55,240 nt of DNA from an uncultured Candidatus Saccharibacteria bacterium (lineage in GTDB: Bacteria > Patescibacteriota > Minisyncoccia > Minisyncoccales > CAYPLZ01), in the NCBI GenBank assembly GCA_964555095.1, contig CAZKRA010000001.1:24964-80203 (forward strand). The letters are read 5' to 3'. Below the pieces are notes generated by a model. It ran no database searches. It saw only the letters and a list, made by a program, of their open reading frames with translations, and was not told the DNA's origin. The stretch's first letter is position 1. Each line of letters begins with the position of its first letter. Position numbers and translations under genes: made by a program. This document shows, one piece after another, positions 1 through 45,060 of the stretch.

Positions 1-2
1 AA

Positions 3-1145
<1,143 letters not shown>

Positions 1146-1541: not shown

Positions 1542-2579
1542 ATGATATCATCGCTATTTAGCGTAATTAAAAAAGGAAAATATTTATTCGGTTTTTTAAT
1601 AATTACTCTTTTGATGGGGTATCTCTTTATTCAACCCTATCAACCTATAGAAGATGAAAAAATAGTTAAAAACTTCAAGCCTGTTTTGAAGGCTAGTAGT
1701 AATTTTGGACGTATTGAATCTCCAGAATTAATTTTAGTAAATAACAATAATATTTATCCTGCGACTCCTCCTGTAACAGTTGAGCCTCAAGTTCTTGGCT
1801 CTATTATTGGAGAAACTAATCAAGGAGAATCTAGCCCTTCTCATATAAAGAAGGGGATTAAAGAATATGTTATTAAAGAAGGAGATACTCTTTCTTCTAT
1901 TGCTGAAAAATTTAATATAAGTGTAAATACTATTCTTTGGTCTAATGAAATCAGTAAAAGCTCTACTCTTGCTCCAGAAGAAAAATTAACTATTCTTCCA
2001 GTAGATGGAGTTATGCATCTTGTTAAAAGAGGAGAAACTATTTCAGGAATAGCTGCTAAGTACAATATTGCTTCTGATGAAATATCATCTTTCAATGACT
2101 TAGAAGACGAAAGTGAAATTTATAAAGGAGATATTTTAATTCTTCCAGGGGCAAAACAAATACAGCAAGTTTATTATGCAAGTGCACAAAGAACTAACGA
2201 ATATAACACCTCTTTTATCCCTCCGACTACAGGTACAATTACTCAAACACAGCACGCTTATAATGCAATTGATGTGGCTAATAATTGTGGAACATTAATT
2301 GTCGCAGCAGCAGGAGGAAAAGTAATTGAAGCTAAATATAATAGTTGGCCAGCTGGAAATTATGTAAAAATAGAACACTACAATGGGTTAATAACAATGT
2401 ATGGTCATCTTTCCCGAATTTCAGTAAGTGCAGGAAGTAAAATAGGGCAAGGTGAACCAATTGGTTACATGGGATCTACTGGTTATAGTACTGGCTGTCA
2501 TCTCCATTTTGACTTATTAAGCACTACTGCTGCAAATCCGCTTTCAAAATATAATAAGGGTGATTATGTGAGATGGTAA
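1542..2579 (+). CDS. LysM-repeat / M23 family peptidoglycan metalloendopeptidase
   Basis: N-terminal TM. Two LysM-like segments (YVIKEGDTLSSIAEKFNISVNTILWSN; HLVKRGETISGIAAKYNIASDEI). M23 signature GNYVKIEH...GSTGYSTGCHLHFDL. Confidence 0.85.
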   Translation: MISSLFSVIKKGKYLFGFLIITLLMGYLFIQPYQPIEDEKIVKNFKPVLKASSNFGRIESPELILVNNNNIYPATPPVTVEPQVLGSIIGETNQGESSPSHIKKGIKEYVIKEGDTLSSIAEKFNISVNTILWSNEISKSSTLAPEEKLTILPVDGVMHLVKRGETISGIAAKYNIASDEISSFNDLEDESEIYKGDILILPGAKQIQQVYYASAQRTNEYNTSFIPPTTGTITQTQHAYNAIDVANNCGTLIVAAAGGKVIEAKYNSWPAGNYVKIEHYNGLITMYGHLSRISVSAGSKIGQGEPIGYMGSTGYSTGCHLHFDLLSTTAANPLSKYNKGDYVRW

Positions 2580-3569: not shown

Positions 3570-3672
3570 CTGATTAAACACCTTACATTATCTCTGATGC
3601 TGATATAGTCTAAAGATCTTAATCAATTTAATGATTGTTCTGCTAAGAATGATGATTTAATTATTTAACAAT

Positions 3673-6039
3673 ATGAGTTTAATTAATAATAAAAAGAAGC
3701 TTCTTTTTTTAATAGGAATTTTACTAATTATTCCTTTGTTTCTTTTAGCTCAAGAGGTTCCTCTTGAGGTTGCTTACCCTGAATTAGGAGACGGGGTTCA
3801 ACCAGGCGAAGGAGGTGGTTTAATTGCCTATATTAACTATGTTTATAATTTCCTTCTTTTTCTTGGAGGTTTAATTATTTTTGGAGTTTTAATATACGGA
3901 GGATATCTTTATTTTATGTCTGGAGCTAATGCTTCTAAAAAGAAAAAGGCAAAAAAAGTGATTTTTGCTGCTTTTTTAGGAGTAATATTATCTTTTTCAG
4001 CCCATTTAATTTTAAATACTATTAACCCTGAAATAACAAATATAAATGTTAGTCAACTTTCTAATATTCCAGGAGAGGACTTAAAAGATAGTTCTTCTGA
4101 CTTTAAAAAAAGTGATCTAAAAGCTCATGCAATGCCACTTGATTCTGCAATTGAAGAGTTAATTGGAAAAGATGATTTTTTACCACGAGTTAAAAAATTA
4201 ATTACAGAAGATTTAAAAAAACATATTAACGCTACTTTTACTGTAGAGAAAGAGATTGCAGGACAAGAACATAGACATGGAATTGCTAGTTTTGGAGAAT
4301 ACAATCATTATTTAACCACACACTGTTCTTGCCAAAATTTAGAAGGACAATGTGGTCCACCTAGTGCTTCTTCATTATGTGGAGAACCAAAAGAGAAAAA
4401 TTGTAAAGCAGTAGAAGGATTTAAGGGAGACGATGGAGAACCAGATCCCTGCCCAGAAGATATAAGAGAAGAAATAAATAATAAGCTGATTGATTTAGCT
4501 AATTTTGTTAAAAATGAAGGAGCCCCAAATAGCGAAGATTTTACCGAATTTGAAACTGATCTCAAAACTCTATATGGTAGAATAGAGCAAGAAAAAGCAT
4601 TATTGCAGAGAAAGCTATCTGCCTTTGAAACCCTTGAATATAGTCTAACAACAGCTGAATGGCAAAAAAACATTGATACAAGTTCTACCTTTTTAAAGAG
4701 ATTAAATTTAATGTTAAATCCTGAAAAGAAATCAAGTGCAGATAATATAGTTAGCACTTATGAATCTAAAAGACAAATAATTGAAATAGTTCCTTCTATT
4801 CTTTCTGATGTTAAGTTTTCTCCTTTAACTTTTTATGAATTATTTTATGATGAGATAGAACCCCCTTTTCAAAAAAAGTTGCTAGCTGAAACTCTTCCTA
4901 GTCAAATACTCAGAATAGAACATTTTTCTATTTTAAATAAAATTGAAATTGGAGAGTTAATGGATAAGGTACGAGAAAATTCTATTGTTATGCTTGGTAA
5001 AATGGAAAAAATAAGCAATTTAATAGAAGAGATGGAGGGCCAAATAGCTGACATCTCTGAAGGACTTTCCCAATGTAATGATAGTGATTGTGATGTTACT
5101 TGTACTTGTATTCCTAACCCACTTGCTTTCTTTGGAGGTCCTCCTTGTATACAATGTTTAGGTGGCTGTAATGGGCAAGCGTGTTCTGGTGCACAAGCAG
5201 ACTTAATAGAGGTAACAAAAGAATTAGATAAAACAGAAGATCTGTTATTAAAAACTATTAATGACTTTAAAATGGCAGCTGATAAATCTCCTCTTTATTT
5301 AGAAAATACAGAAGATTCTCCTTTTGAAACTTTAAATTTAAAAGATGTTAAAAATAAGACTATTCAATGCCAATCTAAAAAGGGGTGGGATTTAATTAGT
5401 TGCGAAAAGGCTTTAGATAATCCTTTAGTATCAGAAGGAGGAAAAGTAATAACTTCTTGTCATCCTCGAGATTATTTTTGTGCTGAAACTAAAAGAGTGG
5501 TAGATATGGAAAAACCATCATTTTTAAAGCTATATGATCCTGGTTATCTTTCGGACTATTCTACTTCTTCTGAAAATGGTTGTCCTAGTGATTGGGAATG
5601 TAGTCAAGAAATTAAAGACAATCAGCAATATCAAGATGCTTCTGCCCCTTTACAAAGATTCTTAACTTGCTTTAGAGAAAAAATTAATAGAAAAAAAGAA
5701 GAAAATGAAATAGAAGATACTATTATAACCATAATTAATATTTCTGATCCTAATCTTTATAAAGAAGGGGCATCTTGTTCTTGGAAAGATGGGGGAGAAG
5801 ATTGCAGTTATCCTTTTACTCAAGAATTATTCAAAGAAAGAGTCTCTGCTCATTATGGGGGAGAAAGATGTCATTTACATATTAAAAAATCTTATGCTGT
5901 TCAATTTAAATATGATCCTTTTTATATTGATATTTTAATCAAAGCAGCCAATGAATGTTTAGCCCCTGTAAACGTTAATAGTTCTCCTCCTTATTTAGAT
6001 ATTAGTATAGCAGGAGCTTATAGGTGTGGAGTAGAATAA
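3673..6039 (+). CDS. Secreted VirB2/TrbC-like pilin hairpin (first ~125 aa) fused to a ~660-aa Cys-rich extracellular domain
   Basis: Signal peptide LLFLIGILLIIPLFLLAQE. Two-TM hairpin YINYVYNFLLFLGGLIIFGVLIYGGYLYF...KKKKAKKVIFAAFLGVILSFSAHLILNTINPEI. About 26 Cys in clusters (HCSCQNLEGQCG, CNDSDCDVTCTCIP...CIQCLGGCNGQACSG). The N-terminal module is paralogous to the one at 8958. Confidence 0.6.
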   Translation: MSLINNKKKLLFLIGILLIIPLFLLAQEVPLEVAYPELGDGVQPGEGGGLIAYINYVYNFLLFLGGLIIFGVLIYGGYLYFMSGANASKKKKAKKVIFAAFLGVILSFSAHLILNTINPEITNINVSQLSNIPGEDLKDSSSDFKKSDLKAHAMPLDSAIEELIGKDDFLPRVKKLITEDLKKHINATFTVEKEIAGQEHRHGIASFGEYNHYLTTHCSCQNLEGQCGPPSASSLCGEPKEKNCKAVEGFKGDDGEPDPCPEDIREEINNKLIDLANFVKNEGAPNSEDFTEFETDLKTLYGRIEQEKALLQRKLSAFETLEYSLTTAEWQKNIDTSSTFLKRLNLMLNPEKKSSADNIVSTYESKRQIIEIVPSILSDVKFSPLTFYELFYDEIEPPFQKKLLAETLPSQILRIEHFSILNKIEIGELMDKVRENSIVMLGKMEKISNLIEEMEGQIADISEGLSQCNDSDCDVTCTCIPNPLAFFGGPPCIQCLGGCNGQACSGAQADLIEVTKELDKTEDLLLKTINDFKMAADKSPLYLENTEDSPFETLNLKDVKNKTIQCQSKKGWDLISCEKALDNPLVSEGGKVITSCHPRDYFCAETKRVVDMEKPSFLKLYDPGYLSDYSTSSENGCPSDWECSQEIKDNQQYQDASAPLQRFLTCFREKINRKKEENEIEDTIITIINISDPNLYKEGASCSWKDGGEDCSYPFTQELFKERVSAHYGGERCHLHIKKSYAVQFKYDPFYIDILIKAANECLAPVNVNSSPPYLDISIAGAYRCGVE

Positions 6040-6088
6040 TTTTATCTTTATTAATTTTTTAAAATTATGAAAATGAAAAAAAAGAATA

Positions 6089-8950
6089 ATGTGGAGTAAA
6101 ATTTCAAAGAGAAAATTAAATACTTCTTTAATTATTGGAGCAATTCTCTGTGGTCTTTTGCTTGGTTTTAATGCTCATAGTTCAAAAATGCCTAGAAAAA
6201 AATCTGTTCTTATAGAATTATCTTTTATAAGTCAAAATTTAATTAAAATAAATGAAAATTTAAACAATCTGCTTAAAGATTGTAATTGCAGTAATTCTGA
6301 AAGTATTTGTGTGCGAAAAGATAATGCATGTGTTACCGTTGGAAACTACAAGAGCCCATGTGAAAATCCATTAGAAATTGAAATACAAAGAGCAAAATTA
6401 CAAAAAAGCATACACCAACTTGCTCTTTTAACTCGCTTAGCTAAGACTGAAGACTCTTCTCTTTACCAAGAAAGTCAAAAAATATTCAATATTGCTACAA
6501 GCACAATGAAGCAAGTAAAAAAATGTTCTGGGCCTGATGCTTGTAATGGTACCTGTTTTCCTGTTCCTGCAAAAGAACTTTGTGGAAGTCTTGGAGTAAC
6601 TAGAAGACAAGTTCCATTTAAATTAAATTTTGGAGTTGAGCTTAAAATGGAGGATGTTACAATTAGTCCAGTTGAAATTAGCGAAGTAGGGCTAAGACTT
6701 CCTGAAAGTATAGCTACTCCTGATGTTCCTGCTCTTTCCAATATTGAAATTGAAATCCCCGATATAATAATTGATGGATTTGAAGTAAATGCTGGAGCTT
6801 TAGCTCATGCAAAAACCCCTGAATCTGCACTATCAATAGAAGCCAAAGACTATGGATCAAGTCCTATTCTTGATGTTAACTCAATTAGCACTCCTCTTCC
6901 TTCTCTTCCTAGTTTTAATTTAACCTGTGATAATAGTGGTGCAAATAATATTTCCCATTGTTCTGTCCCTTCTGATATGGATACAACAATAGAAGATGAT
7001 GGAATTTCAAAGTTTAATGACGTTTCTCAAAAATGTAAAAATCTTTTTACTACAGAAGAAAATATTTTTTATACTAAATCAAATCCTTCTTATGATTTTA
7101 AAGGAGATCAATTTGGAATAATGGTAAATGCCGAGCTTAGTGGCGATCCTTACTTTGATGATCAAATCTCCTTATCTCTTTTAGAAGAAAAATCTGGAGA
7201 GGTTTGTAAGGGAGATTATGAGGTAAGTAGTTCTGTCTCTCTTTCTGATATTTTAAATAATATTAATCAAGAATTAGATTGTCCAAACTACATTAAAACT
7301 CAAGTAAAAGATAATCAATTTATAGCAGAATCTACAACAGCTCAAGAAGGAATGGTTGAGCTTAAAAATGAAATTACTATTAATGCCTCTGTTTCTAGAG
7401 GAGGACCAACTAGCACCCTTGTTATTGACTCTGAGACGACTAAAATGGTCCCTGGAGGCTGTTTTAATCCTGATCAAGTGTTTGATACTATCTCCAATAG
7501 ATGTAACGACCTTAAGGCAAGTAGTCCCTCTCCTCCTGCTTGCAATCTTAATGAAGACAATTATGATTTTTCAGAAGAACAAAAAATAGAAAATGAAAAT
7601 ATATCTTGTGGAGGAGAAACTATTACTAATAGCCCTAATCAGCCTTGGTGTAATGATTCTATTCCTAGTATCCCTAAGATAGAACTGCCTGATTTCCCTG
7701 GTTATGAAATAGAGCTTCCTGATTTTGTTCTATTTCCTTTAATAGATATACAACTTCCTGATTTTATTATTGAAGAATTAAAGACACCAGATATTGAGCT
7801 TTGTAATTTAAATGAATGTCAAGACATTGCTCCTGATATAACTTTTAATCCTCAATTTCCTAAAATAGCAGCTCCGATAATTGAAATTCCTCAATTTACT
7901 GCTCCTAAAGCTCAAATTCAAGTTCAGCTCCCTGACGTTGAAGGGGGAGGAACAGCTTACATTGATGTTAAAATGCCTGAAGTAAGAACTACTTCTTTTA
8001 AAGCTCCTTCAATTAACTTAGGAAACCTTCAAGCTCCTGGTCTTGATAATCTTTTTTCATTTGCAGAACCAAAGTTAAACGTTCCCCAGATTGATATTCC
8101 AACCCCTCAAATTAATTATTATTTTGAAGGCCCAAGCTTGGAAATTACTCCTGGATTAATTATTGGAACCTTACTTAATGTTTTTAATATTGATCCTACT
8201 CAATATAGCTTTTCGTTCTGCTTAGACATCCCTGGGCTGGGCCTTTTAGATCAGCTTGATCTTCCTTTTATAGAACTTGTTTACGAAGATTATATCTTTA
8301 GTTGGCCTGCCTTCCCTGAAATTCCAGAACTTGATTTTTGTAGCGATATTAATCAATTTTGTGCTACATCTACCCAAAAATTAGAAGGAATGAAAGAAAA
8401 AATAAAAAAGATAGAAGAAACAATAGAAACCCTTGGTCAAGATACCCTGGGAGAAAAACTAGAAGAGCTTTCAGGCGTATTAAGTCAAAAATTAGAAGAA
8501 AAAATAGAAGAAAAAATAGGTCTTCTAGAGGATTCTTTATCTCAAGAAATTATAATTACAGAAGATCAATATGCTAAGCTAGAAACTGAAGGAACTATTA
8601 AGATCCCCAGTCAAAGAATTAATACTCCTAATATCACAATAGATGAACTTAAAATAGAAAAAAATTATCCGGAAGAAATCCCTATCCCATGGGATACAAT
8701 AGATCCAGACTTGCAAAGCATGGTTCTTACTGATCCAATTAAATATGAAATTTCTGATATTCCTTTAAGTATTTTAAGCTGGAAAAAAGATGTGGAAATT
8801 AATCTTCCTTTCTTACAAGAAATAGATGTTGAAGCAAAAATAACAACCGGAGAAAATCAAGGTTGCATACGTCTTGATCCAAGATCAAGCATGGATTGTA
8901 GTCTTAACCAAAAGACTAATGAGTTAAAAAATATACAACAAAACCTTTAA
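6089..8950 (+). CDS. Large (953 aa) N-terminally anchored Cys-rich protein with short x-Pro-Asp/Glu-hydrophobic repeats and a C-terminal coiled coil
   Basis: TM LIIGAILCGLLLGF. About 27 Cys (DCNCSNSESICV, CSGPDACNGTCFPVP). Repeats IELPDFPGYEIELPDFVLFPLIDIQLPDFIIEELKTPDIEL. Coiled coil EGMKEKIKKIEETIETL...EEKIEEKIGLLED. No family recognised. Confidence 0.55.
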   Translation: MWSKISKRKLNTSLIIGAILCGLLLGFNAHSSKMPRKKSVLIELSFISQNLIKINENLNNLLKDCNCSNSESICVRKDNACVTVGNYKSPCENPLEIEIQRAKLQKSIHQLALLTRLAKTEDSSLYQESQKIFNIATSTMKQVKKCSGPDACNGTCFPVPAKELCGSLGVTRRQVPFKLNFGVELKMEDVTISPVEISEVGLRLPESIATPDVPALSNIEIEIPDIIIDGFEVNAGALAHAKTPESALSIEAKDYGSSPILDVNSISTPLPSLPSFNLTCDNSGANNISHCSVPSDMDTTIEDDGISKFNDVSQKCKNLFTTEENIFYTKSNPSYDFKGDQFGIMVNAELSGDPYFDDQISLSLLEEKSGEVCKGDYEVSSSVSLSDILNNINQELDCPNYIKTQVKDNQFIAESTTAQEGMVELKNEITINASVSRGGPTSTLVIDSETTKMVPGGCFNPDQVFDTISNRCNDLKASSPSPPACNLNEDNYDFSEEQKIENENISCGGETITNSPNQPWCNDSIPSIPKIELPDFPGYEIELPDFVLFPLIDIQLPDFIIEELKTPDIELCNLNECQDIAPDITFNPQFPKIAAPIIEIPQFTAPKAQIQVQLPDVEGGGTAYIDVKMPEVRTTSFKAPSINLGNLQAPGLDNLFSFAEPKLNVPQIDIPTPQINYYFEGPSLEITPGLIIGTLLNVFNIDPTQYSFSFCLDIPGLGLLDQLDLPFIELVYEDYIFSWPAFPEIPELDFCSDINQFCATSTQKLEGMKEKIKKIEETIETLGQDTLGEKLEELSGVLSQKLEEKIEEKIGLLEDSLSQEIIITEDQYAKLETEGTIKIPSQRINTPNITIDELKIEKNYPEEIPIPWDTIDPDLQSMVLTDPIKYEISDIPLSILSWKKDVEINLPFLQEIDVEAKITTGENQGCIRLDPRSSMDCSLNQKTNELKNIQQNL

Positions 8951-8957
8951 ACTATAA

Positions 8958-10286
8958 ATGTTTTCTTTTAAAAAAATTAATAAAATAATACTTATATCTT
9001 TTTTTCTATTTTTATTTCTAATTCCATTAACCGTATTAGGAGTTAATGATTTAGAAGTTGATTACCCTAATATAGGAACAGAGGCTCCAGCTGACACTTC
9101 AAATCTTCCTCAATATCTTTCTTATGTTTATAATTTCTCTTTCTATATTATTGGCTTTATTCTTTTAGGATCTACTATTTATTGGGGGGTTATGGTTTTA
9201 GCTGCAATGGAAAGCGCAGATAAAAGATCGGATGCATTAAAAAACTTAAGGACTTCAGCTCTGGGTGCAGTATTGGTTCTTACTTCTTTCCTTGTTTTAA
9301 ATTCTATTAATCCTGACATTCTTAATCCAAACTTAAAGGAAATGAACAAATCAGAACTCGGTTTAAGTTCTGGGATTTATTTTTGTAATTATAAAATAAA
9401 CGATATTGATAAAAATATAAGCAATTATGCTCAAGGATCAAAAGAAGAACGAGATAAAGCAGCACAAGCTCTTAGTGCAAAGTTAAATCCAGGAGATAAA
9501 GATAAAGGTTGTATCCACTTAACCTTTTCGGGAAACATTGCCAAAAAAATTAAATTTTCTGATACTAGACCAGGATTACCAGAGCATACTGTTTTTTCTC
9601 TTCCTTCCCGAAAAATTACAAAAGAAGGAAGTGAGCCTAATTATATTTATGGTGCTCTCTTCCATGAAAAGGAAAACTTTGAAGGAAGAGCAACCCTTTA
9701 TCCTCTTTCTGCAGGAAAAGGTACTAGCAAAGAAAATTATTATAAGCCAGATAGTTATGAGCTCAAAATTAAGAATGAAGGATATGAGACTTTTATTCCT
9801 AGCTCTGTTACCATTTTTAAAAAGATATCCTTGTCTGAGGACGAAAAAATTGACTCTGAAGTAAAAATTTACCCTTATCCTGGCTATAATAGCACCAGTA
9901 CTGGAAATGAATCAATTAGTCCTAACCTTTTAGGTGATTTAAATCACCTTGATAATGATTTTCAAACTACAATTTTTTTAGAAGATTTTAAATATAAGGA
10001 CGAGAAAGGCTATTTTAATAATAATGTTCTATCGATTAAGATTTCTCCTGGAGGCAAATATTTAGTTTTTCTTTTCCCAGAGGATGAAGAAAAAGACGTT
10101 GATAGAAGCTATGAAGACGTTTTGATAACTTCTCTTGGGATCTTCGGAGAAATATTAGGCCCTAAAATAATAAATAATAGTAAAACTGATTTAGCTGAAG
10201 ATTTGTATACAACTATAGACGATAATCGCAACCGTATTCCTGCTATCAATTCAATTTTAATAATTCCAGGGAAAAAACTTAATTAA
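8958..10286 (+). CDS. Second VirB2/TrbC-like pilin hairpin fused to a ~320-aa extracellular domain
   Basis: Signal/TM ILISFFLFLFLIPLTVLG. LEVDYPNIG...YLSYVYNFSFYIIGFILLGSTIYWG...ALGAVLVLTSFLVLNSINPDILNP aligns with residues 30-125 of the 3673 protein. Confidence 0.6.
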   Translation: MFSFKKINKIILISFFLFLFLIPLTVLGVNDLEVDYPNIGTEAPADTSNLPQYLSYVYNFSFYIIGFILLGSTIYWGVMVLAAMESADKRSDALKNLRTSALGAVLVLTSFLVLNSINPDILNPNLKEMNKSELGLSSGIYFCNYKINDIDKNISNYAQGSKEERDKAAQALSAKLNPGDKDKGCIHLTFSGNIAKKIKFSDTRPGLPEHTVFSLPSRKITKEGSEPNYIYGALFHEKENFEGRATLYPLSAGKGTSKENYYKPDSYELKIKNEGYETFIPSSVTIFKKISLSEDEKIDSEVKIYPYPGYNSTSTGNESISPNLLGDLNHLDNDFQTTIFLEDFKYKDEKGYFNNNVLSIKISPGGKYLVFLFPEDEEKDVDRSYEDVLITSLGIFGEILGPKIINNSKTDLAEDLYTTIDDNRNRIPAINSILIIPGKKLN

Positions 10287-10294
10287 ATAAAATA

Positions 10295-12643
10295 ATGTTA
10301 TTTAAAGAAAGATTTAACAGCTTAATATCTCTTATCTCAAACCATATTAAAAAATTTAGCCTCCTACTGCTTTTTGGCTTATTTGTTCCTTTTTTAGCTT
10401 TTGCTGATTGGGGTCTCGAAACCTTATTCAATGGATTAATATTTGCAGTCCTAAGGTTTATTCTTTGGGTTTCAAAAGGAGCAGCTTACCTTTCTATTGC
10501 TTTTTTTAACTATGTAACAAGCCCTGGTTTTATGCCTTTAAGTTATACAAATCCTGCAGGAAACCCTATAATTGAACTTGGATTAGAAATTACTCGTCCT
10601 TTTGCTAATTTAATAATTGTATTTTTTCTTATTATAATTGGTTTAGCTACAGCCCTTAACTACAAAGATTACGCTGCTAAAAAATTACTTCCTTGGTTAG
10701 TAGGAGCTGCTTTATTAATAAATTTTGTTCCCCTTATTTTAGGAGTTATTATGGATGGGGCTAATACTGTTACTTTTTATTTCTTTGAAAATATTGGAGA
10801 AGGAACTACTATTCTTCAAAACAATCTTTTAGATCTGGGGGGAGGATCATTTGAACCCAGTGGTGGAGAAAAGGTAACTCCTTCTCTTCTTTATAGAGCT
10901 GTAGTCGCTATTGCCTTTTATGCTTTTGTTGCTTGGACATTCTTTATTTATGCCTTTATCTTTTTTATCCGTTATATATATATTTGGACCTTAGTTATTT
11001 TATCTCCTTTAACTTTTGTTGCCGGAGTTATCCCTGCCACAAGAAAGTTGTTTACCAAATGGTGGGAAGACTTTATTCACTGGGCTTTTATTGGTATTCC
11101 TGCCGGATTTTTTATTTATATTGGCCTCCAAATGCTTGCTCGAATTCAAGACATACTTCCGAAAATGGCAATAATACAAGCACAAGAATTTGGCAAAGCT
11201 AATGAACTACTTATTAACATCCTTCCTAGTATAGTAGTAATGGTTTTTCTATGGTTGGGAAGTAAAGAGGTAAAAAAGTTAGCATCTGATGGAGCAAGCG
11301 TTGCAATAGGAGCAGCAGGAGCCATAGCTACAGGCGGTGCCTCAGCTGCAGCATCAGCTGGGAATTGGTTTGGAAAGAAAATAAGATCTTCTAAAGTTGG
11401 TCAAGGAGTTGCAAGCAAAGGAGAAAAGTGGGAAACCGTAACAGGGAAGAAAGGTACAAAAACTTTCCATCGCTATGCCACTCGCCCACTTGGTAAAAAA
11501 ATGAAGGATATTGCTTCTGATAAAGATGATTATCATAGCGGAAAAGAAGAAATTAAAGGAGAAGATCTTTCTGATCAGCTTTATTCTATTCTCCAAGCAA
11601 CTGGAACAGACAGAGAGGGTAAAATTGCTCAATTTTTGGAAGAACGAGGAGAGAAGGGAAGAAAAATTTTAGAAAAAAAGATAGAAAAAGAGGATATAGT
11701 AAAAGTACGTGAAAAAGCTGGAAAGATGGAAGATAAATCTGCAACCAAGAAAATAGATCAATCTTTTGCTAAGATACTAGCTAAGGCTGAAGGAAAGGAT
11801 GATGATAGCTTATTTAATAAATTTAAAGACATTCTTCACTCACAAACCTCTGAAGAAGCAAGAATCAAAAAAGATGATATAGAGGCTCTTGGAGATGAGA
11901 TAAAGGATGAAATAGTTAGCGTTAATAATATTACATTGAGTTCGGAAGATATAAAATATGCTGAAAATGCGAAAGAAGACACAGAAGAGGTAAAAAAATC
12001 AATAAAAAATCAGAAGATTCAAAAAGCCTTAAGAGGAGTAACAAAGAAAGAAATGAAAGAAAAAGGTTATAGAAACTACTTAGATAAAGTAGTTGATAAT
12101 GCAAAGAGCGAAGAAGACATTAAAGACCTTAAAGGTACAATAAAAGAAAAGAAGACAATTGAAGCTGTTCATAGATTTTGGACTGGAGACCAAATATCCA
12201 AAGGAGTAAAAGAACTAGGAAAAGACTTTCTTGAAAGCTTTACAAAAGGACTAAAATCAGCTGAATGGTACGTAAAAAAAGACTCTACAGGAAAAATGAG
12301 AAATATACAGCTCCCCTCTTATCTCATAAGTAATGCGAGTCTCCCACTTGGCACTCCTACTATAAGAGATGAGAACGGTAATGAAATTAATAATAAAAAA
12401 GAGTTAAGGGCTATGAGCCAAAACCCAAATACAGGCTCTTCTTCTAGTTCTTCTCAATCTAGTTCTAAGAGTTCTTCTCAATCTAGTGGAGATAATACTT
12501 CTAAGAAAAAAACATCGAAGAGACGACGCGCAGCAGGAACTAAAAAATCTAGTAAAACCTCTCGTTCTAGAGGAGGGTTTGGATCATCAAAAAAGAATAA
12601 ATCAGATGAGAAAGAAGGGGGAAGAGAAAGAGGAACTCTTTGA
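10295..12643 (+). CDS. Polytopic membrane protein, VirB6/TrbL-like by position and topology, with a ~440-aa hydrophilic C-terminal tail
   Basis: About 7-8 TM helices in the first ~340 aa, then a Gly/Ala-rich segment, then a Lys/Glu-rich tail. The tail ends in poly-Ser and a basic stretch (SSSSSSQSSSKSSSQSS...KKKTSKRRRAAGTKKSSK). The assignment is an inference from context. Confidence 0.45.
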   Translation: MLFKERFNSLISLISNHIKKFSLLLLFGLFVPFLAFADWGLETLFNGLIFAVLRFILWVSKGAAYLSIAFFNYVTSPGFMPLSYTNPAGNPIIELGLEITRPFANLIIVFFLIIIGLATALNYKDYAAKKLLPWLVGAALLINFVPLILGVIMDGANTVTFYFFENIGEGTTILQNNLLDLGGGSFEPSGGEKVTPSLLYRAVVAIAFYAFVAWTFFIYAFIFFIRYIYIWTLVILSPLTFVAGVIPATRKLFTKWWEDFIHWAFIGIPAGFFIYIGLQMLARIQDILPKMAIIQAQEFGKANELLINILPSIVVMVFLWLGSKEVKKLASDGASVAIGAAGAIATGGASAAASAGNWFGKKIRSSKVGQGVASKGEKWETVTGKKGTKTFHRYATRPLGKKMKDIASDKDDYHSGKEEIKGEDLSDQLYSILQATGTDREGKIAQFLEERGEKGRKILEKKIEKEDIVKVREKAGKMEDKSATKKIDQSFAKILAKAEGKDDDSLFNKFKDILHSQTSEEARIKKDDIEALGDEIKDEIVSVNNITLSSEDIKYAENAKEDTEEVKKSIKNQKIQKALRGVTKKEMKEKGYRNYLDKVVDNAKSEEDIKDLKGTIKEKKTIEAVHRFWTGDQISKGVKELGKDFLESFTKGLKSAEWYVKKDSTGKMRNIQLPSYLISNASLPLGTPTIRDENGNEINNKKELRAMSQNPNTGSSSSSSQSSSKSSSQSSGDNTSKKKTSKRRRAAGTKKSSKTSRSRGGFGSSKKNKSDEKEGGRERGTL

Positions 12644-12671
12644 TCGTAATTTTGATTGAATCTAAAAAAAG

Positions 12672-12699
12672 AAAAAGAGGGAATTTTCCCTCTTTTTTT
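12672..12699. terminator. Bidirectional rho-independent terminator between convergent genes
   Basis: gagggaa-tt-ttccctc palindrome flanked by an A-run and a T-run. Confidence 0.65.
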
Positions 12700-12700
12700 A

Positions 12701-14077
12701 TTATTTAAGTCCTGCTTTTAGAGCTGCGATAATCCCTGTTAGTCCACTTTCTGCACCTTCAATTTTAATTCTTTCTTCACTTAAGCTGCCTGTTTGAGCA
12801 CTGATATCAAGCTCTCTTAATTCTTTGATGTATTCTGTCATTTTTTCTTGTACTTCTTCATCTTCTCTAATTTGTTCTCTAATTTTTTCTTGTTTTAGTC
12901 CTGTAACTTCTGCGAGCATTGCTATTACTGGCCCAATTAGTTCTCTTGCTTTTTCTAAAGCTTCAAATTGTGCTGCTTCAGAATCTAATTCAGAAGCTTG
13001 CTTCTCTATTCTAGCATTAACTACATCTTCTGGTTCATCATAATCTTCAATACTTACACCTTGTTCTTCAATACTAAACTTATCTAGCTGTTCTTTTACC
13101 TTTTTTGTCTGTTCTAAGAAGTTTTCCTCTTCTTCTGTCAATTCTTTTTTATCTTTAAGGTTCTCTCTTTTTTGAAAAAGGGCAGCTAATAAGTCAGCAA
13201 GTACACTTTCTGCTTCTCTTGTTGTAGATCTTTTTAAAAAACTAGATATTGAGGCTTCTACTATTTGAATAACTTGATCAACACTTCCTGGAGCTCCTCC
13301 TGGTCCCTTATATATTATTTGATAGACAGATTGTCTAACTTTTGCTTCATTTCCAGGGGTAGGTTCACTAAGCCACTTATCCCCACCCTCTATTTGAAAT
13401 CTGAAAAAGGCTTCACTAACAAATGCAGCACCATCTTCAAAATCCATTCTAAGTGGTGCTCCGTCTTTTCCCTCTAGAATTCTTCTTTGATTTTGCCCTA
13501 GAGGTACTTGGTTTTTATTCTCATCACATTTCCCAAGAACCGGTAAGATAAAGGCTATACCCGGTCCTAGAATAGAAACTGGATTTTCAAATACTTCTAC
13601 AACCCATCTTTCTTCTCTTGGAATAGTAGTTAGTCCACTTATCCCAATTAAGGTAAAAATTAATAAGAAGAATATAGAAACTATTGTTTCTCCTAAAATT
13701 AAGAGCACCATTCCAGTTAGTCCACTTGCTCCAATAAAGCTTAGTCCTACTTCATATATAATTCTTTCCGTTCCTCTGAAAATAACTTCTTTGACGTCTT
13801 CATTTTTTATCCTCTGTTCTTTAGTAATCCCTCCCAAACGGGTGCTAATTCTAATTAGAACAAATAACACAATCCAAATGATTCCAAAAAAGATAGCCGC
13901 TCTAATAAACCCTTTTATCAATACATTTGAATTTATCTGGGGGAAGTTCAAATTTAAATCTGGTGTTTGTTTTAATCCTTCTTCAAGGATACCGTTAAAA
14001 GAAGTAGGGCCAAGTAAAAAGTTACCAATTCCTATAGCTAAAACTAAAAAAACTAAAACTGCTATTACTTTCTTCAT
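12701..14077 (-). CDS. Membrane protein with SPFH/band-7-like domain and acidic coiled-coil C-terminus
   Basis: N-terminal TM helices. ERWVVEVFENPVSILGPGIAFILPVLG resembles the start of SPFH domains. The C-terminus is Glu-rich. Confidence 0.45.
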   Translation of the reverse strand: MKKVIAVLVFLVLAIGIGNFLLGPTSFNGILEEGLKQTPDLNLNFPQINSNVLIKGFIRAAIFFGIIWIVLFVLIRISTRLGGITKEQRIKNEDVKEVIFRGTERIIYEVGLSFIGASGLTGMVLLILGETIVSIFFLLIFTLIGISGLTTIPREERWVVEVFENPVSILGPGIAFILPVLGKCDENKNQVPLGQNQRRILEGKDGAPLRMDFEDGAAFVSEAFFRFQIEGGDKWLSEPTPGNEAKVRQSVYQIIYKGPGGAPGSVDQVIQIVEASISSFLKRSTTREAESVLADLLAALFQKRENLKDKKELTEEEENFLEQTKKVKEQLDKFSIEEQGVSIEDYDEPEDVVNARIEKQASELDSEAAQFEALEKARELIGPVIAMLAEVTGLKQEKIREQIREDEEVQEKMTEYIKELRELDISAQTGSLSEERIKIEGAESGLTGIIAALKAGLK

Positions 14078-16104: not shown

Positions 16105-16707
16105 ATGCCAAAATCTTCAGCACAATCCTTTTTAGAAATAGAGCAAATTAAAGAAGGTTTTTTAATTTTAAAAAATAAATCTTTAAGAGGAGTTATAATG
16201 ACCTCTTCCGTTAATTTTGCTCTTCTTTCACAGCAAAGACAAAAGGCTATTATTAGTCAATTTCAAGAATTTTTAAATTCTTTGGATTTTACTGTTCAAA
16301 TAGTAATTCAATCTCGTAAATTAAACCTAACTGGTTATCTTGAAAAATTAGAAGAATTTCAAAGAAATGCAGATCAAGAATTATTAAAAGTCCAAATTGC
16401 AGAATATAGAAAATTTATAAATACTCTAATTGAAGAACAAACAATAATGACAAAAAACTTTTTAGTTTTAGTTCCTTTTGATCTGCATGGAATTCCAGGA
16501 AAAGAGATAAAAAAAGAGCAATTTGAAAGAGCAAGAACTCAATTATGGCAAAGAATGGAATTTGTAGTATTAGGGTTAAGAAGATGTAGTTTAGATTGTA
16601 GTCCTCTTCAAACACCAGAATTAATAGAATTATTTTGGACATTACACCACCAAAAGAAAGCTGAAGTTGGTTATTTCCCCGCAATTCCTTCTGAATTAAT
16701 AACTTAA
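16105..16707 (+). CDS. Stand-alone homologue of the N-terminal domain of Gram-positive-type VirB4 ATPases
   Basis: FLEIEQIKEGFLILKNKSLRGVIMTSSVNFALLSQQRQKAIISQFQEFLNSLDFTVQIVIQS resembles the N-terminal ~200 aa of Tn916 ORF16/TcpF-type VirB4 proteins as I remember them. It ends 11 nt before the ATPase ORF, in a different frame. Confidence 0.45.
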   Translation: MPKSSAQSFLEIEQIKEGFLILKNKSLRGVIMTSSVNFALLSQQRQKAIISQFQEFLNSLDFTVQIVIQSRKLNLTGYLEKLEEFQRNADQELLKVQIAEYRKFINTLIEEQTIMTKNFLVLVPFDLHGIPGKEIKKEQFERARTQLWQRMEFVVLGLRRCSLDCSPLQTPELIELFWTLHHQKKAEVGYFPAIPSELIT

Positions 16708-16718: not shown

Positions 16719-18503
16719 ATGGACATTCCTTTTTTAGATAAAATTTTAAATAAAAAAGAAAAAGAAAGGCTAACTACAAAAGCTGTAAATCTTAAAGATA
16801 TTATTGCCCCTTCTTCTATTTCAATAGGGTCAGACCATCTTGAAGTAGGAGAAAAAACAGCGAAATCTTTCTTTGTTTTCTCTTACCCTAAATATATTAA
16901 CACCGGATGGACTTCTCCTTTAATTAATCTTAATCACCCAATGGATATTTCCTTTTTTATCCATCCTATTAATACAGCTGTTATTTTAAAACAATTAAGA
17001 AAAAAATTAACACAGATTAAAGCAGAAATAACTGAAAGAAGAGAAAAGGGTTTAATTGAAGACCCCTCTTTAACCTCTGCTCATACAGACATTAAAGAGC
17101 TTAGAAGCAAATTACAAACTGCAAGAGAAAGAATGTTTAGATTAAGTATTTATCTTACTGTATATGGTAAAGATACAGCTGAAATAGATAATGTAGAAAA
17201 TACTTTACGTTCTATTCTTGAATCAAGAATGATTTATGTTAAGCCAGCTCTTTTTCAACAAGAAAAAGGATTTAAGTCTACCTCTCCTTACGGACTAGAT
17301 CAATTAGGTATACACACTCCAATGAATACTGCTCCTTTGTCTAGTGTTTTCCCTTTTATGTCTTTTGATTTAAGCTCTAACGAAGGAATATTATATGGAG
17401 TAAATCAACACAATAATTCCCTTATTCTTTTTGATAGGTTTAGTTTGCCTAATGCAAATATGACTATTTTTGCTACTAGTGGTGCTGGTAAAAGTTATTT
17501 TGTTAAGCTTGAAATCCTTCGTTATTTAATGGCAGGAGTAGATAGCATTATTGTTGATCCAGAAAATGAATATAGATTTTTATCTGATGCCGTAGGAGGT
17601 TCCTTTTTAAATATTTCTTTATCTTCTCCTCAACATATTAATCCTTTTGATTTACCTAAACCAAGAGAAGATGAGGACCCTCAAGATGTTCTTCGCTCTA
17701 ATATTATTAATTTAGTAGGACTATTTAGAATAATGCTTGGAGGATTATCTCCAGAAGAAGACTCAATCATCGATAGAGCTTTAACTGAAACTTATGCAGC
17801 AAAAGATATTACTGCTGATACTGATCCTGATCTCTGGGATAAACGAGTTCCCTTATTAGAAGACTTTGAAACTGTCTTGGAGGGGATGGTAGGAACAGAA
17901 AGCTTACTTAGAAGATTAAGAAAATATACTCAAGGTAGTTATGCAGAATTTTTTAATAACTATACAAATATTTCAACAGATAAGCCTCTTGTAGTTTTTG
18001 GAATAAGAGATATGGAAGATGAGCTTCGTCCTATGGCAATGTTTATTATAATGCGCTATATTTGGAATAAAGTTCGCTCAGAGCTTAAAAAAAGAATCTT
18101 AGTAGTAGATGAGGCCTGGTGGGTAATGAAAAATGAAAATGGTGCTTCTTTCCTTTTTGGGATGGTAAAAAGAGGAAGAAAATACTGGCTTGGTGTAAGC
18201 ACTATTACTCAAGACGTTGGAGACTTTATGAAGTCAGATTACGGCCAACCAATTATTACAAATTCTTCCCTGCAGCTTTTATTAAAACAAAGCTCAGCCA
18301 CCATTGACCAAGTTCAAAACGTTTTTAACCTTACTGAAAATGAGGTTCATAGACTCTTAGAAGCAGAAGTAGGTGAGGGCCTATTTTTTGCTGGCAAAAA
18401 GCATGTTGCTATTAAAGTAGAAGCTTCTTACACAGAAGATCAAATTATTACTACTTCGCCTGAACAAATTAAAAAAATTAAAAGAGAAAAAAATACTATT
18501 TAG
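16719..18503 (+). CDS. virB4: VirB4/TrbE-type type IV secretion ATPase (middle and C-terminal domains)
   Basis: Walker A FATSGAGKSYF, Walker B ILVVDEAWW, then GRKYWLGVSTITQ. The N-terminal part IAPSSISIG...FFVFSYPKYINTGW...DISFFIHP is typical of the family. Confidence 0.85.
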   Translation: MDIPFLDKILNKKEKERLTTKAVNLKDIIAPSSISIGSDHLEVGEKTAKSFFVFSYPKYINTGWTSPLINLNHPMDISFFIHPINTAVILKQLRKKLTQIKAEITERREKGLIEDPSLTSAHTDIKELRSKLQTARERMFRLSIYLTVYGKDTAEIDNVENTLRSILESRMIYVKPALFQQEKGFKSTSPYGLDQLGIHTPMNTAPLSSVFPFMSFDLSSNEGILYGVNQHNNSLILFDRFSLPNANMTIFATSGAGKSYFVKLEILRYLMAGVDSIIVDPENEYRFLSDAVGGSFLNISLSSPQHINPFDLPKPREDEDPQDVLRSNIINLVGLFRIMLGGLSPEEDSIIDRALTETYAAKDITADTDPDLWDKRVPLLEDFETVLEGMVGTESLLRRLRKYTQGSYAEFFNNYTNISTDKPLVVFGIRDMEDELRPMAMFIIMRYIWNKVRSELKKRILVVDEAWWVMKNENGASFLFGMVKRGRKYWLGVSTITQDVGDFMKSDYGQPIITNSSLQLLLKQSSATIDQVQNVFNLTENEVHRLLEAEVGEGLFFAGKKHVAIKVEASYTEDQIITTSPEQIKKIKREKNTI

Positions 18504-23405: not shown

Positions 23406-24449
23406 ATGAAAAAATTTTATATTTTATTTATTAGTGGAATAATTGTTTTAATTATTTCTTTTTTATATTTATTTTTTACTTCTCCTCAAATAATAAAAAT
23501 TTCTCCTATAAACAATCAAAATAAAGTTGATTTAAATTCAAAAATTGAAATTGAGTTTAATAGACCAATAAAAAGAAGAGAGATTAAAATAGAAACCTCA
23601 CCTAATCTTTACGGAGAGATTTCTTTTAAAAAACCTCTTGTTAAGGATCATCTTTATCGAAAAGTAATTTTTAATCCTGTTTTAGATTTAAAAAATAATG
23701 AAAAATATATTGTTAATGTAAAAAATATTAAGGGATTTATTTCTAATAATTCTTCTGATTTTTCTTTTTCTTTTAAGACCGATAAAATCCAAAATGAAAC
23801 GCTTAATCAAAAAGAAGAAGATAAAATCCAAAATGAAACGCTTAATCAAAAAGAAGAAGATAAAATCCAAAATAAAATACTTAATATTGAATTAGACTGG
23901 CAAGATTATTCTTTATCTTGTGAAGCTGCTTCCTTAAAAATGGCTTTAAGGTATAAAGGGTTTAATGTTACTGAAAATCAAATAATGAATAAAATAGGAA
24001 TTGATCCTACTCCTAAAAAAAATGGAATCTGGGGAGATCCTTATTCATATTTTGTAGGAGATATAGATGGAAAAATATGCTCTACTGGTTTTGGTGTATT
24101 TAAGGAACCGGTAGAAAGGGCAGCAAAAGTATGGACAGAAGCAAAAAGTTTCTCAAAAAAGGACATTGATTTTTTAATTGAAGAAATATATAAAGGTAAT
24201 CCAGTTATAGTATGGGGAGTTCTTCCTGGAAAAAAACTAAGTTATTGTTCTTGGAAAACTAAAACAGGAAAAGATATTAAAGTTTTTAAACAAACCCATG
24301 TTAGACTTCTTATTGGTTTTATTGGAGATAAGAATAATCCTAAACAAGTTGTTTTAAACGATCCATTATCAGGTCGTATTTATTGGTCAACTTCGTATTT
24401 TTTAGAAAATTGGGGAAAATATAATAGAAGTGGAGTTATTGTAAAATAA
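23406..24449 (+). CDS. Membrane-anchored protein: Ig-like domain, 13-aa tandem repeat, C-terminal C39-like (papain-fold) peptidase domain
   Basis: N-terminal TM. The Ig-like reading of the segment after the TM is only a guess. DKIQNETLNQKEE occurs x2.4. YSLSCEAASLKMALRYKG resembles the catalytic-Cys region of C39-like peptidases. Confidence 0.55.
   Translation: MKKFYILFISGIIVLIISFLYLFFTSPQIIKISPINNQNKVDLNSKIEIEFNRPIKRREIKIETSPNLYGEISFKKPLVKDHLYRKVIFNPVLDLKNNEKYIVNVKNIKGFISNNSSDFSFSFKTDKIQNETLNQKEEDKIQNETLNQKEEDKIQNKILNIELDWQDYSLSCEAASLKMALRYKGFNVTENQIMNKIGIDPTPKKNGIWGDPYSYFVGDIDGKICSTGFGVFKEPVERAAKVWTEAKSFSKKDIDFLIEEIYKGNPVIVWGVLPGKKLSYCSWKTKTGKDIKVFKQTHVRLLIGFIGDKNNPKQVVLNDPLSGRIYWSTSYFLENWGKYNRSGVIVK
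23781..23873 (+). repeat. 39-nt tandem repeat, 2.4 copies, in frame
   Basis: gataaaatccaaaatgaaacgcttaatcaaaaagaagaa at 23781-23819 and, identical, at 23820-23858. A partial third copy runs to 23873. Confidence 0.95.
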
Positions 24450-28354: not shown

Positions 28355-29080
28355 TTATTTAATATTTGAATAGACCTCTTGTACTGCCATATTCTCTTTA
28401 AGGGCTTCTACAAGTTCTTCATATTTTTCTTTTTCCTCTTCTTTTAATTCTATCTTATTCTGAGAAACCCAAATTAAAGAAGAGGTATCTACCTCGAAGC
28501 CTTTTTCTTCTAATCTTGTTCTTACCTCTCCTAGTTCTTTAGGAGCAGTTATTACTTTTACATCTTCTTCATCTTCCCATTCGAGATCTTCGGCTCCTGC
28601 ATCTATTATAGCAAGTTCTACTTCATCTTTCGAATTATCGTTTTCTTCTAAATCTAAAATAATTTCTCCCTTCCTTTTAAAGCTCCATTTAACAGATCCT
28701 TCTGAAGTAAGTTGTGCATCAAAATCTTTTAAAGTTTTTTTAATTTTAGTTAAAGTTCTGTTTTTATTATCTGTTTCAGTCTCTACTATTAAAAAAATAC
28801 GACTAAAACCCTCAATTTCAAGATCTACCCGTTGAATTTTTCCATCTTTTAAATTTCCTTTACCTTTTTTAATTGCTTTTTTAATATTATTTTTAGGCAT
28901 ATCTGCTTCCCTTGCTTTTTCAATAGCATTTTTTAACTTCACATTTGTTTTAGGATCATCTCCTCCTTCTCTAACAGCACGAATAATCTTCCGAGACAAT
29001 TTTGAAAATTTTTTTCCCCGTTTTTGATCTTTTGCTTCTTTTTTTCTCTTTATATTGCTGTAATGACTGTGTCCACTCAT
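28355..29080 (-). CDS. yebC: YebC/PmpR-family transcriptional regulator
   Basis: MSGHSHYSNIKRKKEAKDQKRGKKFSKLSRKI. Confidence 0.9.
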   Translation of the reverse strand: MSGHSHYSNIKRKKEAKDQKRGKKFSKLSRKIIRAVREGGDDPKTNVKLKNAIEKAREADMPKNNIKKAIKKGKGNLKDGKIQRVDLEIEGFSRIFLIVETETDNKNRTLTKIKKTLKDFDAQLTSEGSVKWSFKRKGEIILDLEENDNSKDEVELAIIDAGAEDLEWEDEEDVKVITAPKELGEVRTRLEEKGFEVDTSSLIWVSQNKIELKEEEKEKYEELVEALKENMAVQEVYSNIK

Positions 29081-44436: not shown

Positions 44437-45060
44437 ATGAATTTAGTTTATCTTTTTATTTTTATAGTCACCTCCTTTGCACTTAATCAGGTTTGGAGGT
44501 CTATTTTATCAAATAGGTTTTATTATTTTTTAATAGTGCCAGGAATGATAGTGCATGAGTTGTCTCATATTCTAGGCTGTTTTTTAGTTGGGGCTAAAGT
44601 AAAAGAAGTTAAGCTTTTTTCAAAGAAAGGAGGCTATATTGTCCATAAAAAACCGAAGCTTCCCTTATTAGGGAAAATTATAATTGCTTTAGCCCCGATT
44701 ATTGTTGGAAGTATTATATCTCTAATGATTTCTAAAAATTTGGGATTAAGTATAACTAATTTTGAAATAGAGAAACTAGTTACTATTAAATTTTGGGTAT
44801 TTTTTATTATAGTGACCTCTATTCTAATTGAAATGATACCTTCTAAAGCAGATCTTAAAAATGCAATTGGAGGCTTTGTTCTAATTACAGGAATAGGAGG
44901 ACTACTTTATTGGTTGGGATGGAGCAATCTGTTTTCTTCCTTTATTTCAAATCCTGGAATAGAAAAATTTCTTTTTCTAATGGTTTCTTTAGAGTCTTTT
45001 CTCTTAATTTTAAGCTTACCCTTTTACTTAATTAGAGCTATTTTTTCCCACTGTAAATAA
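44437..45060 (+). CDS. Polytopic membrane protein with HExxH motif (putative intramembrane zinc metalloprotease)
   Basis: PGMIVHELSHILGCFLVG at a TM boundary. The ATG directly abuts the TAA of the presenilin-like gene. Confidence 0.45.
   Translation: MNLVYLFIFIVTSFALNQVWRSILSNRFYYFLIVPGMIVHELSHILGCFLVGAKVKEVKLFSKKGGYIVHKKPKLPLLGKIIIALAPIIVGSIISLMISKNLGLSITNFEIEKLVTIKFWVFFIIVTSILIEMIPSKADLKNAIGGFVLITGIGGLLYWLGWSNLFSSFISNPGIEKFLFLMVSLESFLLILSLPFYLIRAIFSHCK

Follow-up and report, generated by a model that had tools for sequence, protein, structure and literature searches.

Putative type IV secretion system pilin-like proteins with large predicted ectodomains in a conserved four-gene operon of an uncultured Patescibacteria bacterium

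Two hairpin proteins with large C-terminal domains

The window analysed here is a 55,240-nucleotide stretch of contig CAZKRA010000001.1 (assembly GCA_964555095.1, positions 24,964–80,203 of the forward strand) from an uncultured Candidatus Saccharibacteria bacterium. Two of its genes, p788 and p442, encode proteins in which a signal peptide and a two-helix hairpin, apparently of the pilin type of a type IV secretion system (T4SS), precede a much larger C-terminal domain that is predicted to lie outside the cell. The features of the pair are as follows, with TM1 and TM2 denoting the first and second transmembrane helices.

3673–6039, plus strand: p788 (788 aa), an open reading frame (ORF) for a modular pilin-like protein with a signal peptide, a hairpin and a 663-aa Cys-rich ectodomain; PF18895 match at residues 54–117
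3673–3750, plus strand: p788 signal peptide, residues 1–26, with an n-region containing three Lys, an h-region and a putative cleavage site LLA/QE (from hydropathy and charge)
3751–4047, plus strand: p788 pilin-type hairpin, residues 27–125, with the tail LEVAYPELG, TM1 at 51–82, the loop SGANASKKKKAKK, TM2 at 96–117 and the exit motif LILNTINPEI
8958–10286, plus strand: p442 (442 aa), an ORF with a signal peptide (1–28), a hairpin (29–125) and a 317-aa Cys-poor ectodomain

The N-terminal hairpins of p788 and p442 are paralogous, as the original prediction had proposed. BLASTP aligns residues 31–130 of p788 with residues 32–130 of p442 (36% identity, 59% positives, E = 4e-17), and a family hidden Markov model (HMM) built without p442 matches its residues 7–135 at E = 5.7e-30; the rest of the two chains gives no significant BLASTP alignment. 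Both N-termini contain an n-region with Lys followed by a hydrophobic, signal-like segment, beyond which each chain has two hydrophobic helices (51–82 and 96–117 in p788; 55–84 and 99–118 in p442). The earlier description of each protein as a signal peptide plus a two-helix hairpin agrees with hydropathy and charge and, for p788, with the helices of the AlphaFold (AF2) model described below. The hairpin makes up about 15–25% of the chain, and the C-terminal parts of 663 and 317 residues match the sizes first given for them (about 660 and 320).

Relationship of the hairpin to pilin families

Profile comparisons support assignment of the hairpin to PF18895 (T4SS_pilin), a pilin-like family of Patescibacteria, as a T4SS pilin-type module. 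In p788, the PF18895 model is matched over positions 9–71 of 71 with 26.3 bits (E = 8e-6), 0.3 bit under the gathering score of 26.6, and p442 scores 16.0 bits (E = 0.013), also under that threshold. Orthologues and relatives score 27–42 bits, the model matches 89 of 99 and 23 of 32 related proteins, and p788 and p442 are clearly homologous to proteins that pass it. A hairpin HMM matches p788 at E = 2.9e-33 and p442 at E = 3.4e-23. The features of PF18895 members are present in both proteins: a signal peptide, two transmembrane helices, a short basic loop and a nearby cluster containing VirB4. The hairpin family has a near-invariant motif, (L)ILxTINP(Q/E)(I/L), where TM2 ends, and both this TINP exit motif and the extracellular tail LExxYPEIxG are kept across hairpins that carry unrelated cargo.

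The nearest named relative of the hairpin, as judged by profile matches, is a protein of monoderm integrative and conjugative elements (ICEs) and not a proteobacterial VirB2. The model NF045849, which describes the Mbov_0395 family pilin-like conjugal transfer protein of the Mycoplasma ICE, matches 31 of 32 hairpin segments at E <= 0.01, p788 among them. These matches cover almost the whole 80-position model (best E = 1.7e-9), and all scores lie under its 40-bit equivalog cutoff (26.8 bits for p442 and 21.4 bits for the p788 hairpin); the hairpins are related to the NF045849 protein but do not belong to the same equivalog. The consistency of the match to this Mycoplasma protein suggests that the hairpin could be an ancestral component of monoderm T4SSs rather than a loan from diderm VirB2.

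The claim of T4SS pilin architecture stands as far as the relation to PF18895 and NF045849 and the T4SS operon are concerned; kinship with canonical VirB2/TrbC is the part that is not supported, and such homology is not demonstrated by our profile comparisons. PF04956 (VirB2/TrbC) does not match p788 or p442 at E <= 0.1, and in relatives it gives sporadic weak matches (E about 1e-3). The hairpin alignment (A4) was compared by hhalign with an alignment (A5) of eight genuine VirB2/TrbC genes from plasmids; the similarity is not significant (probability 5.1%, score 19.9), and the alignment is in register, with TM1 on TM1 and TM2 on TM2. Searched against PDB sequences, the hairpin profile returns generic membrane hairpins only and no solved pilin. 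Foldseek superimposes the hairpin of the p788 model on the Aeropyrum pernix conjugation pilin 8dfu (TM-score 0.63, probability 0.60), a match that is not significant. We also considered p788 and p442 as type IV pilins with a class III signal peptide and rejected this assignment: the prepilin peptidase site (F/M-T-L-x-E after the cut at G) is absent from the N-termini, which read MSLINNKKKLLFLIG... and MFSFKKINKIILIS...

Topology and cysteine content

Charge and hydropathy were used to judge the topology. In p788 and p442 alike, the segment from the signal peptide to TM1 has five acidic residues and is free of Lys and Arg. The loop between the helices is basic, with six Lys in p788. The stretch beyond TM2 is acidic in p788 (12 Lys/Arg versus 17 Asp/Glu) and near-neutral in p442 (15 versus 12). 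By the positive-inside rule, this charge pattern would place the loop in the cytoplasm and both termini outside.

The Cys residues of p788 number exactly 26 (the first count had been about 26), and all of them are located beyond the hairpin, within residues 218–785; p442 has two. The two clusters that had been singled out lie at residues 218–260 (nt 4324–4452) and 468–504 (nt 5074–5184). Among 32 homologues, 24 of the 26 Cys are kept in at least 25. Other proteins of the window contain mostly 0–4 Cys and at most 10, except for p953, the product of the gene between p788 and p442, which has 27. The charge distribution and the conserved Cys together support the placement of the large C-terminal domains outside the cell, where the original prediction had put them, and p788 and p953 probably contain disulfides. 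A search of the 55-kb window for a Dsb/VKOR oxidoreductase, by CxxC motifs and Pfam on membrane and secreted ORFs, came back empty.

Predicted structure of the p788 ectodomain

Three parts of the p788 ectodomain are distinguished below.

4324–4452, plus strand: Cys module 1 (C218, C220, C227, C236, C244, C260), with five of six Cys kept in at least 27 of 32 homologues; also present in p953
5074–5184, plus strand: Cys module 2 (C468...C504), a predicted β-hairpin knot between two long helices
5350–6036, plus strand: C-terminal α/β head, residues 560–788, with 12 Cys; predicted local distance difference test (pLDDT) scores of about 85–96, the best-predicted part

AlphaFold gave an unusable model of p788 from a two-sequence alignment (pLDDT 35.9), and the 32-sequence family alignment was needed to obtain a usable one (pLDDT 78.1, predicted template modelling score (pTM) 0.71). 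In this model the hairpin helices (50–82 and 87–117) are followed by a low-confidence linker (125–147). Three long helices of 34–44 residues (297–330, 426–469 and 505–542) are interrupted by Cys-rich β-hairpins, and the chain ends in the compact α/β head (about 560–788), where confidence is highest. The overall shape is that of an elongated helical stalk with a globular head.

There are no matches to the whole-chain p788 model in the PDB or BFVD at E <= 0.001 by Foldseek, and neither ectodomain matches Pfam, NCBIfam, PHROG or PDB sequences; no phage relation of either protein emerges from PHROGs. Against PDB sequences, phmmer and the p788-family profile (A2) return nothing meaningful for p788, and p442 yields only noise at E >= 0.15. 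The first impression that neither C-terminal domain is recognisable is borne out for both proteins, and it extends to the fold in the case of the p788 model. Taken with its homologues, the p788 ectodomain is a real, constrained family.

Several candidate assignments were examined and set aside. Weak Foldseek matches of p788 to α-pore-forming toxins, IpaD and EspB have low probability and were not relied on. A LAS/M15 zinc peptidase motif (SxHYGG...SYAVD...HxHIS) can be seen by eye in the head, without Pfam, PDB-profile or Foldseek support, and p788 lacks two of the three candidate ligands, with Gln744 at the position of the presumed Asp and Asp776 at that of the presumed His. For a VirB5-type tip fold there is no Pfam match, and the whole-chain Foldseek matches in the PDB at E <= 10 include no VirB5/TraC structure.

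The hairpin could be an export or assembly leader whose ectodomain is cut at or near the Asn-Pro exit motif and then released or passed to the apparatus, leaving a mature hairpin pilin. Such processing would resemble the C-terminal trimming that occurs in the maturation of RP4 TrbC, and it would account for a near-invariant motif at the end of TM2 followed directly by a segment that the model predicts with low confidence and that is probably flexible. The same motif is carried by a short family member (L017, 145 aa) that ends about 25 residues past it; since short members have it too, the motif is more likely a feature of pilin packing or a helix cap. The operon encodes no protease and there is no evidence of cleavage, and we consider a processed carrier improbable.

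Homologues and the conserved cassette

An exhaustive HMMER search of 1.84 billion cluster representatives matched 9074 proteins at E <= 1e-3, of which 830 reach E <= 1e-10 and 34 reach E <= 1e-30. A word-indexed search recovered two clusters each for p788, p442 and the family alignment; those for p788 are its own sequence and a single fragment 68% identical to it. Some 30 of the proteins matched by HMMER are full-length p788 homologues (750–1045 aa), with about 31% identity extending from the hairpin through to the C-terminal end, and full-length homologues of p442 (395–471 aa) comprise P0144, P0104, P0077, P0139 and P0127. In three members of the p788 family (P0010, P0021 and P0031; 960–1045 aa), an extra Cys-containing domain of about 240 residues follows the signal peptide and precedes the hairpin; a hairpin can thus carry ectodomains at either end.

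These homologues also dispose of the idea that each long ORF is an artefact in which assembly or gene calling joined a small pilin gene to the gene downstream of it. Independent assemblies from ENA, JGI and Logan contain the identical 788-aa ORF, on 13 contigs in all, and full-length orthologues at about 31% identity share its architecture; the fusion explanation is refuted on both counts and we give it practically no weight.

The p788 and p442 genes are part of a larger conserved arrangement, whose remaining features are listed here together with the neighbouring T4SS genes.

3582–3609, plus strand: promoter-like site CTTACA-16-TATAGT with TG, within the gap of 175 nt that precedes the operon (consensus scan only, weak evidence)
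6089–8950, plus strand: p953, an ORF for a membrane-anchored protein (residues 10–28) with 27 Cys, the conserved partner gene between p788 and p442
6245–6493, plus strand: p953 residues 53–135, a CxC..C..C..PC module common to the p788 family (p788-family HMM positions 200–284, E = 1.4e-6 in a four-sequence search)
10295–12643, plus strand: p782 (782 aa), a VirB6/TrbL_3-like polytopic membrane protein with at least six transmembrane segments and a long hydrophilic tail; the operon ends with this gene
12670–12699: strong bidirectional terminator-like hairpin closing the operon, a 13-pair stem followed by a T run
12701–14077, minus strand: Band_7/SPFH membrane protein converging on the operon, in the same position in L025, L026 and L029
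15604–16020, plus strand: PrgI/VirB3-like protein (PF12666, 34.8 bits versus a cutoff of 27)
16105–16707, plus strand: TrsD-like/VirB4 N-terminal-domain protein (NF041427 and NF045975, sub-threshold)
16719–18503, plus strand: VirB4 ATPase of the CD1110 (monoderm MPF-FATA type) family (NF045971, 372 bits versus a cutoff of 325; PF19044)
1542–2579, plus strand: LysM and M23 peptidase protein, a candidate wall-opening (VirB1-like) enzyme beside the operon; the neighbour is kept in L025/L026

The genes p788, p953, p442 and p782, separated by gaps of 49, 7 and 8 nt, form one operon as read from the DNA. The order is kept in L025/L026 and L029, where a p788-like gene (816/820 aa) is followed by genes for a Cys-rich protein of about 1000 aa, a p442-like protein (421/445 aa) and TrbL_3, with Band_7 convergent; identities to these relatives are 28–37%. 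In L025/L026, rsmA lies upstream of the cassette and dnaN/dnaA lie downstream of it. Orthologues of p953 occupy the same position in L029 (982 aa, E = 5e-46) and L025 (1012 aa, E = 2e-30). Because orthologues of p782 (E = 1e-49 to 4e-54) carry PF19590 TrbL_3, we regard it as VirB6-like. The VirB6-like, PrgI, TrsD-like and VirB4 genes all lie within 8.5 kb on the same strand as p788 and p442, and khpB/jag, yidC, dnaA and dnaN follow VirB4.

The module that p953 has in common with the p788 family comprises the first Cys cluster and the helix after it; further matches to it are L029_820 (E = 3e-4, BLASTP) and P0067 (E = 1e-5, phmmer). The C-terminal half of p953 (459–953) is its best-conserved part among orthologues, and the protein has no family match. 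Residues of about 200–700 contain many short repeats of the P-D-I / E-L-P-D-F type, for example IELPDFPGYEIELPDFVLFPLIDIQLPDFII. In p782, the C-terminal tail of about 420 residues is hydrophilic and rich in Lys and Ser (an 'extended VirB6'), and residues 64–141 give a weak TrbC/VirB2 Pfam match (E = 0.0012). VirB4 appears to be split into a 200-aa TrsD-like protein, which matches the N-terminal part of VirB4 models, and a 594-aa ATPase. TrsD homologues have been described in Patescibacteria, and M23/LysM domains have been noted in VirB1-type proteins (PMC12102498). No relaxase or coupling-protein domains turned up among the window proteins scanned.

A small pilin gene of a different subtype, with GLVPCG...C.FCH before the hairpin, adjoins rpsO some 9.5 kb upstream of p788 and beyond the window (L001:458-1138); it encodes 226 aa with a Cys-rich acidic tail, and the copy in a relative (L025:441-875) encodes 144 aa. 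This protein is a candidate major subunit.

The same role might be claimed for p788, p442 or both, as bulk T4SS filament subunits each decorated with a 35–75 kDa domain. In conjugative pilus structures (F-pilus, T-pilus) the pilin termini face outward, and by analogy a C-terminal fusion need not block the lumen. A domain of 660 residues on every subunit would nonetheless be sterically crowded in a tightly packed helical pilus, and the locus is accompanied by the small pilin gene just described (226 aa here, 144 aa in L025). The conservation of two different large pilins together with p953 suggests a defined complex rather than a homopolymer. We regard bulk subunits of this size as very improbable.

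Other genes of the window are noted for completeness. A presenilin-type signal-peptide peptidase (43588–44436, plus strand) adjoins an M50B-like intramembrane protease (44437–45060, plus strand); these proteases could process membrane hairpins, and nothing links them to the operon. Positions 1–1145 (plus strand) contain the 3' part of a gene for a 785-aa protein with Thr/Pro/Gly/Glu-rich repeats (L001:5116-7473) and a weak PARP-repeat Pfam match, and minus-strand ORFs with GS/RL repeats at 3–292 are mirror images of the repeats of this protein. Rfam gives no matches in the window, and DnaA boxes are not enriched in it.

Distribution of the hairpin design

The hairpin is present in 147 of the 150 best representatives from the search, a sample that is skewed to p788-like hairpins and does not describe all PF18895 proteins. 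At least 100 residues follow the hairpin in 136 of the 147 and at least 200 in 120, with a median of 14 Cys in the extension. The same pattern is seen in relatives from GTDB genomes that are labelled Jorgensenbacteria or "Saccharibacteria"; these proteins are 145–517 aa long and often have 13–20 Cys. Tandem hairpins, two to four per chain, occur in 15 of the 147 (including P0040, P0042, P0044, P0033, P0038, P0069 and P0153); these chains look like concatenated pilin arrays, and some have a large C-terminal domain. A hairpin followed by a large ectodomain is, on this comparison, a conserved cassette and a widespread design, not a one-off.

The cargo varies. Among 99 hairpin proteins, the recognised C-terminal domains are β/γ-crystallin (five), NlpC/P60 (four), SLT (three), Peptidase_C39_2 (three), M15_4 (one) and LTD (one). 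The earlier question of whether hairpin and cargo occur separately is answered in part: the hairpin is found with other cargo, and there is no evidence among the homologues for p788 cargo without a hairpin, P0017, P0023, P0029, P0032, P0058 and P0060 being truncated gene calls. A 339-aa hairpin protein from a Logan assembly (P0004) contains, in its C-terminal part, the motif S-K-H-L-S-G-D-A-F-D ... W-H, which resembles VanY/M15 by eye and has no Pfam match. The window itself encodes a stand-alone secreted protein with Peptidase_C39_2 and Big_5 domains (23406–24449, plus strand) and a lamin-tail-domain protein (29077–29736, minus strand). Since both domain types are elsewhere fused behind a pilin hairpin, this suggests domain shuffling between free and hairpin-anchored forms of the Peptidase_C39_2 and lamin-tail types.

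Such variety raises the question of whether the hairpin is a generic anchor, a pilin-derived two-helix tether for assorted exoproteins, with p788 and p442 acting independently of the T4SS and their operon position reflecting co-regulation only. The range of cargo (NlpC/P60, SLT, Peptidase_C39_2, β/γ-crystallin, M15_4 and LTD), the long extensions in 136 of the 147 hairpin proteins and a p788 homologue that adjoins ribosomal genes are all in keeping with this explanation. Against it stand a four-gene cassette with VirB6 kept at about 30% identity, and an extracellular tail and TINP exit motif conserved far beyond the needs of an anchor. One signal-anchor helix, as in p953, would suffice for tethering, and the wall hydrolases among the cargo are themselves T4SS accessory functions (VirB1). 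We judge a generic anchor rather unlikely.

A model for p788 and p442 at the T4SS

We favour, with somewhat more confidence than doubt, a model in which p788 and p442 are modular pilin-like T4SS components whose ectodomains are brought to face the host by the VirB6/VirB4 machinery and act in host contact. It is preferred over a plain anchor because the cassette is conserved with VirB6 and because the LExxYPEIxG tail and TINP motif are strongly conserved. In the first step, Sec/YidC would insert p788 and p442 and the signal peptide would be removed. The sequence features then predict two membrane helices whose Lys-rich loop faces the cytoplasm and whose two ends lie on the outside. The C-terminal ectodomain would fold outside the cell, with about 13 disulfides each in p788 and its partner p953.

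The link to secretion comes from the genes: p788 and p442 share one operon with the VirB6/TrbL_3-like channel protein beside VirB3, TrsD and VirB4, in a cassette kept in distant relatives. The hairpins may dock on the VirB6/VirB4 machinery, or be handled by it as pilins are, so that the ectodomains would reach the distal, host-facing end as minor or tip subunits or as a stalk or cap. There they could contact the host cell, filling an adhesin role for which surveys found no protein. As the bulk filament subunit p788 and p442 are unlikely, and the 226-aa pilin is the better candidate.

Several observations count against this model. p788 scores just below and p442 below the PF18895 gathering score, the hhalign comparison with VirB2/TrbC is not significant, and the hairpin profile finds no solved pilin among PDB sequences. 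The predicted topology is a judgement from charge and hydropathy, and no Dsb/VKOR oxidoreductase was seen in the window. One p788 homologue (L027/L028) has ribosomal genes as neighbours, and its contig, a short one, shows no T4SS gene. The same hairpin is elsewhere fused to wall hydrolases and other enzymes, which fits a generic anchor equally well.

A broader proposal, which we put forward tentatively as a possibility, is that these are the first modular VirB2-type pilins. Here the VirB4/VirB6 machine would lift the hairpins into a stalk or filament, and p788, p442 and p953 would carry disulfide-knotted ectodomains to the host as the missing adhesin or contact complex of a T4SS on which epibiotic growth depends. 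More generally, the hairpin would serve to display hydrolases and binding domains in a T4SS-coupled manner, sometimes with two to four hairpins fused in one chain.

Few machines have been shown to be essential for the host-dependent life of Patescibacteria; the T4SS is among them, and its function, any filament and its host-contact parts are unknown (PMC10633639, PMC11665869, PMC12857230). In the sampled hairpin subtype most 'pilins' are large modular proteins, which changes the reading of pilin arrays. p788, p953 and p442 are concrete candidates for a host-contact module; they also point to a new protein fold family and a possible principle of surface display.

Comparison with known systems

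The p788/p442 locus corresponds to the origin-proximal monoderm-type T4SS of Patescibacteria described by Quinonero-Coronel et al. 2025 (PMC12102498). In Patescibacteria the T4SS lies near dnaA and no PrgB-type adhesin has been detected (PMC10633639, PMC12102498, PMC12857230), and in Southlakia epibionticum the T4SS, VirB2-like pilin arrays included, was shown to be essential (Wang et al. 2023, PMC10633639). PF18895 proteins are listed in published surveys as "VirB2-like pilins", and these surveys report no adhesin. The texts consulted treat these pilins as small and do not mention large C-terminal domains, and no T4SS pilus is reported for Patescibacteria in the literature searched. Compared with the VirB2-like arrays of Patescibacteria (SEML1 locus of S. 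epibionticum), the present locus has the same hairpin family, the same monoderm T4SS with VirB3, TrsD, VirB4 and VirB6 and the same site beside dnaA. It differs in that the bulk of the protein is a conserved ectodomain without a known fold, and in that a pilin-like pair, a Cys-rich partner and VirB6 form a fixed cassette.

The Mycoplasma ICE proteins Mbov_0395 and MMCAP2_0565 (NF045849) resemble p788 and p442 in the hairpin match and in belonging to a monoderm, MPF-FATA-type system, whereas their 80-position model has no large ectodomain and the window proteins score at most about 27 bits. Canonical VirB2/TrbC/TraA (PF04956) have the same signal peptide, two hydrophobic helices, basic loop and VirB3/VirB4/VirB6-type neighbours. 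In those proteins the mature form is little more than the hairpin (about 70–120 aa), often cyclised or trimmed, whereas here 317–663 residues are added and the hairpins have no significant sequence or profile similarity to the canonical ones.

A similar design logic is found in modular type IV pilins such as PilB and PilC of Streptococcus sanguinis, in which a polymerisation or anchor module carries a large adhesive module at low abundance. Type IV pilins differ in using another machine, a single N-terminal helix and a class III signal peptide. The VirB5 adhesins of diderms and the enterococcal PrgB are alike in the distal target-contact role proposed for p788, with no Foldseek or Pfam match to it. 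Pilin-like arrays in Patescibacteria T4SSs were already known. What appears new, relative to the literature searched, is the pilin module as a minor part of large Cys-rich proteins, its place in a fixed VirB6 cassette and the variety of the predicted ectodomains that it carries.

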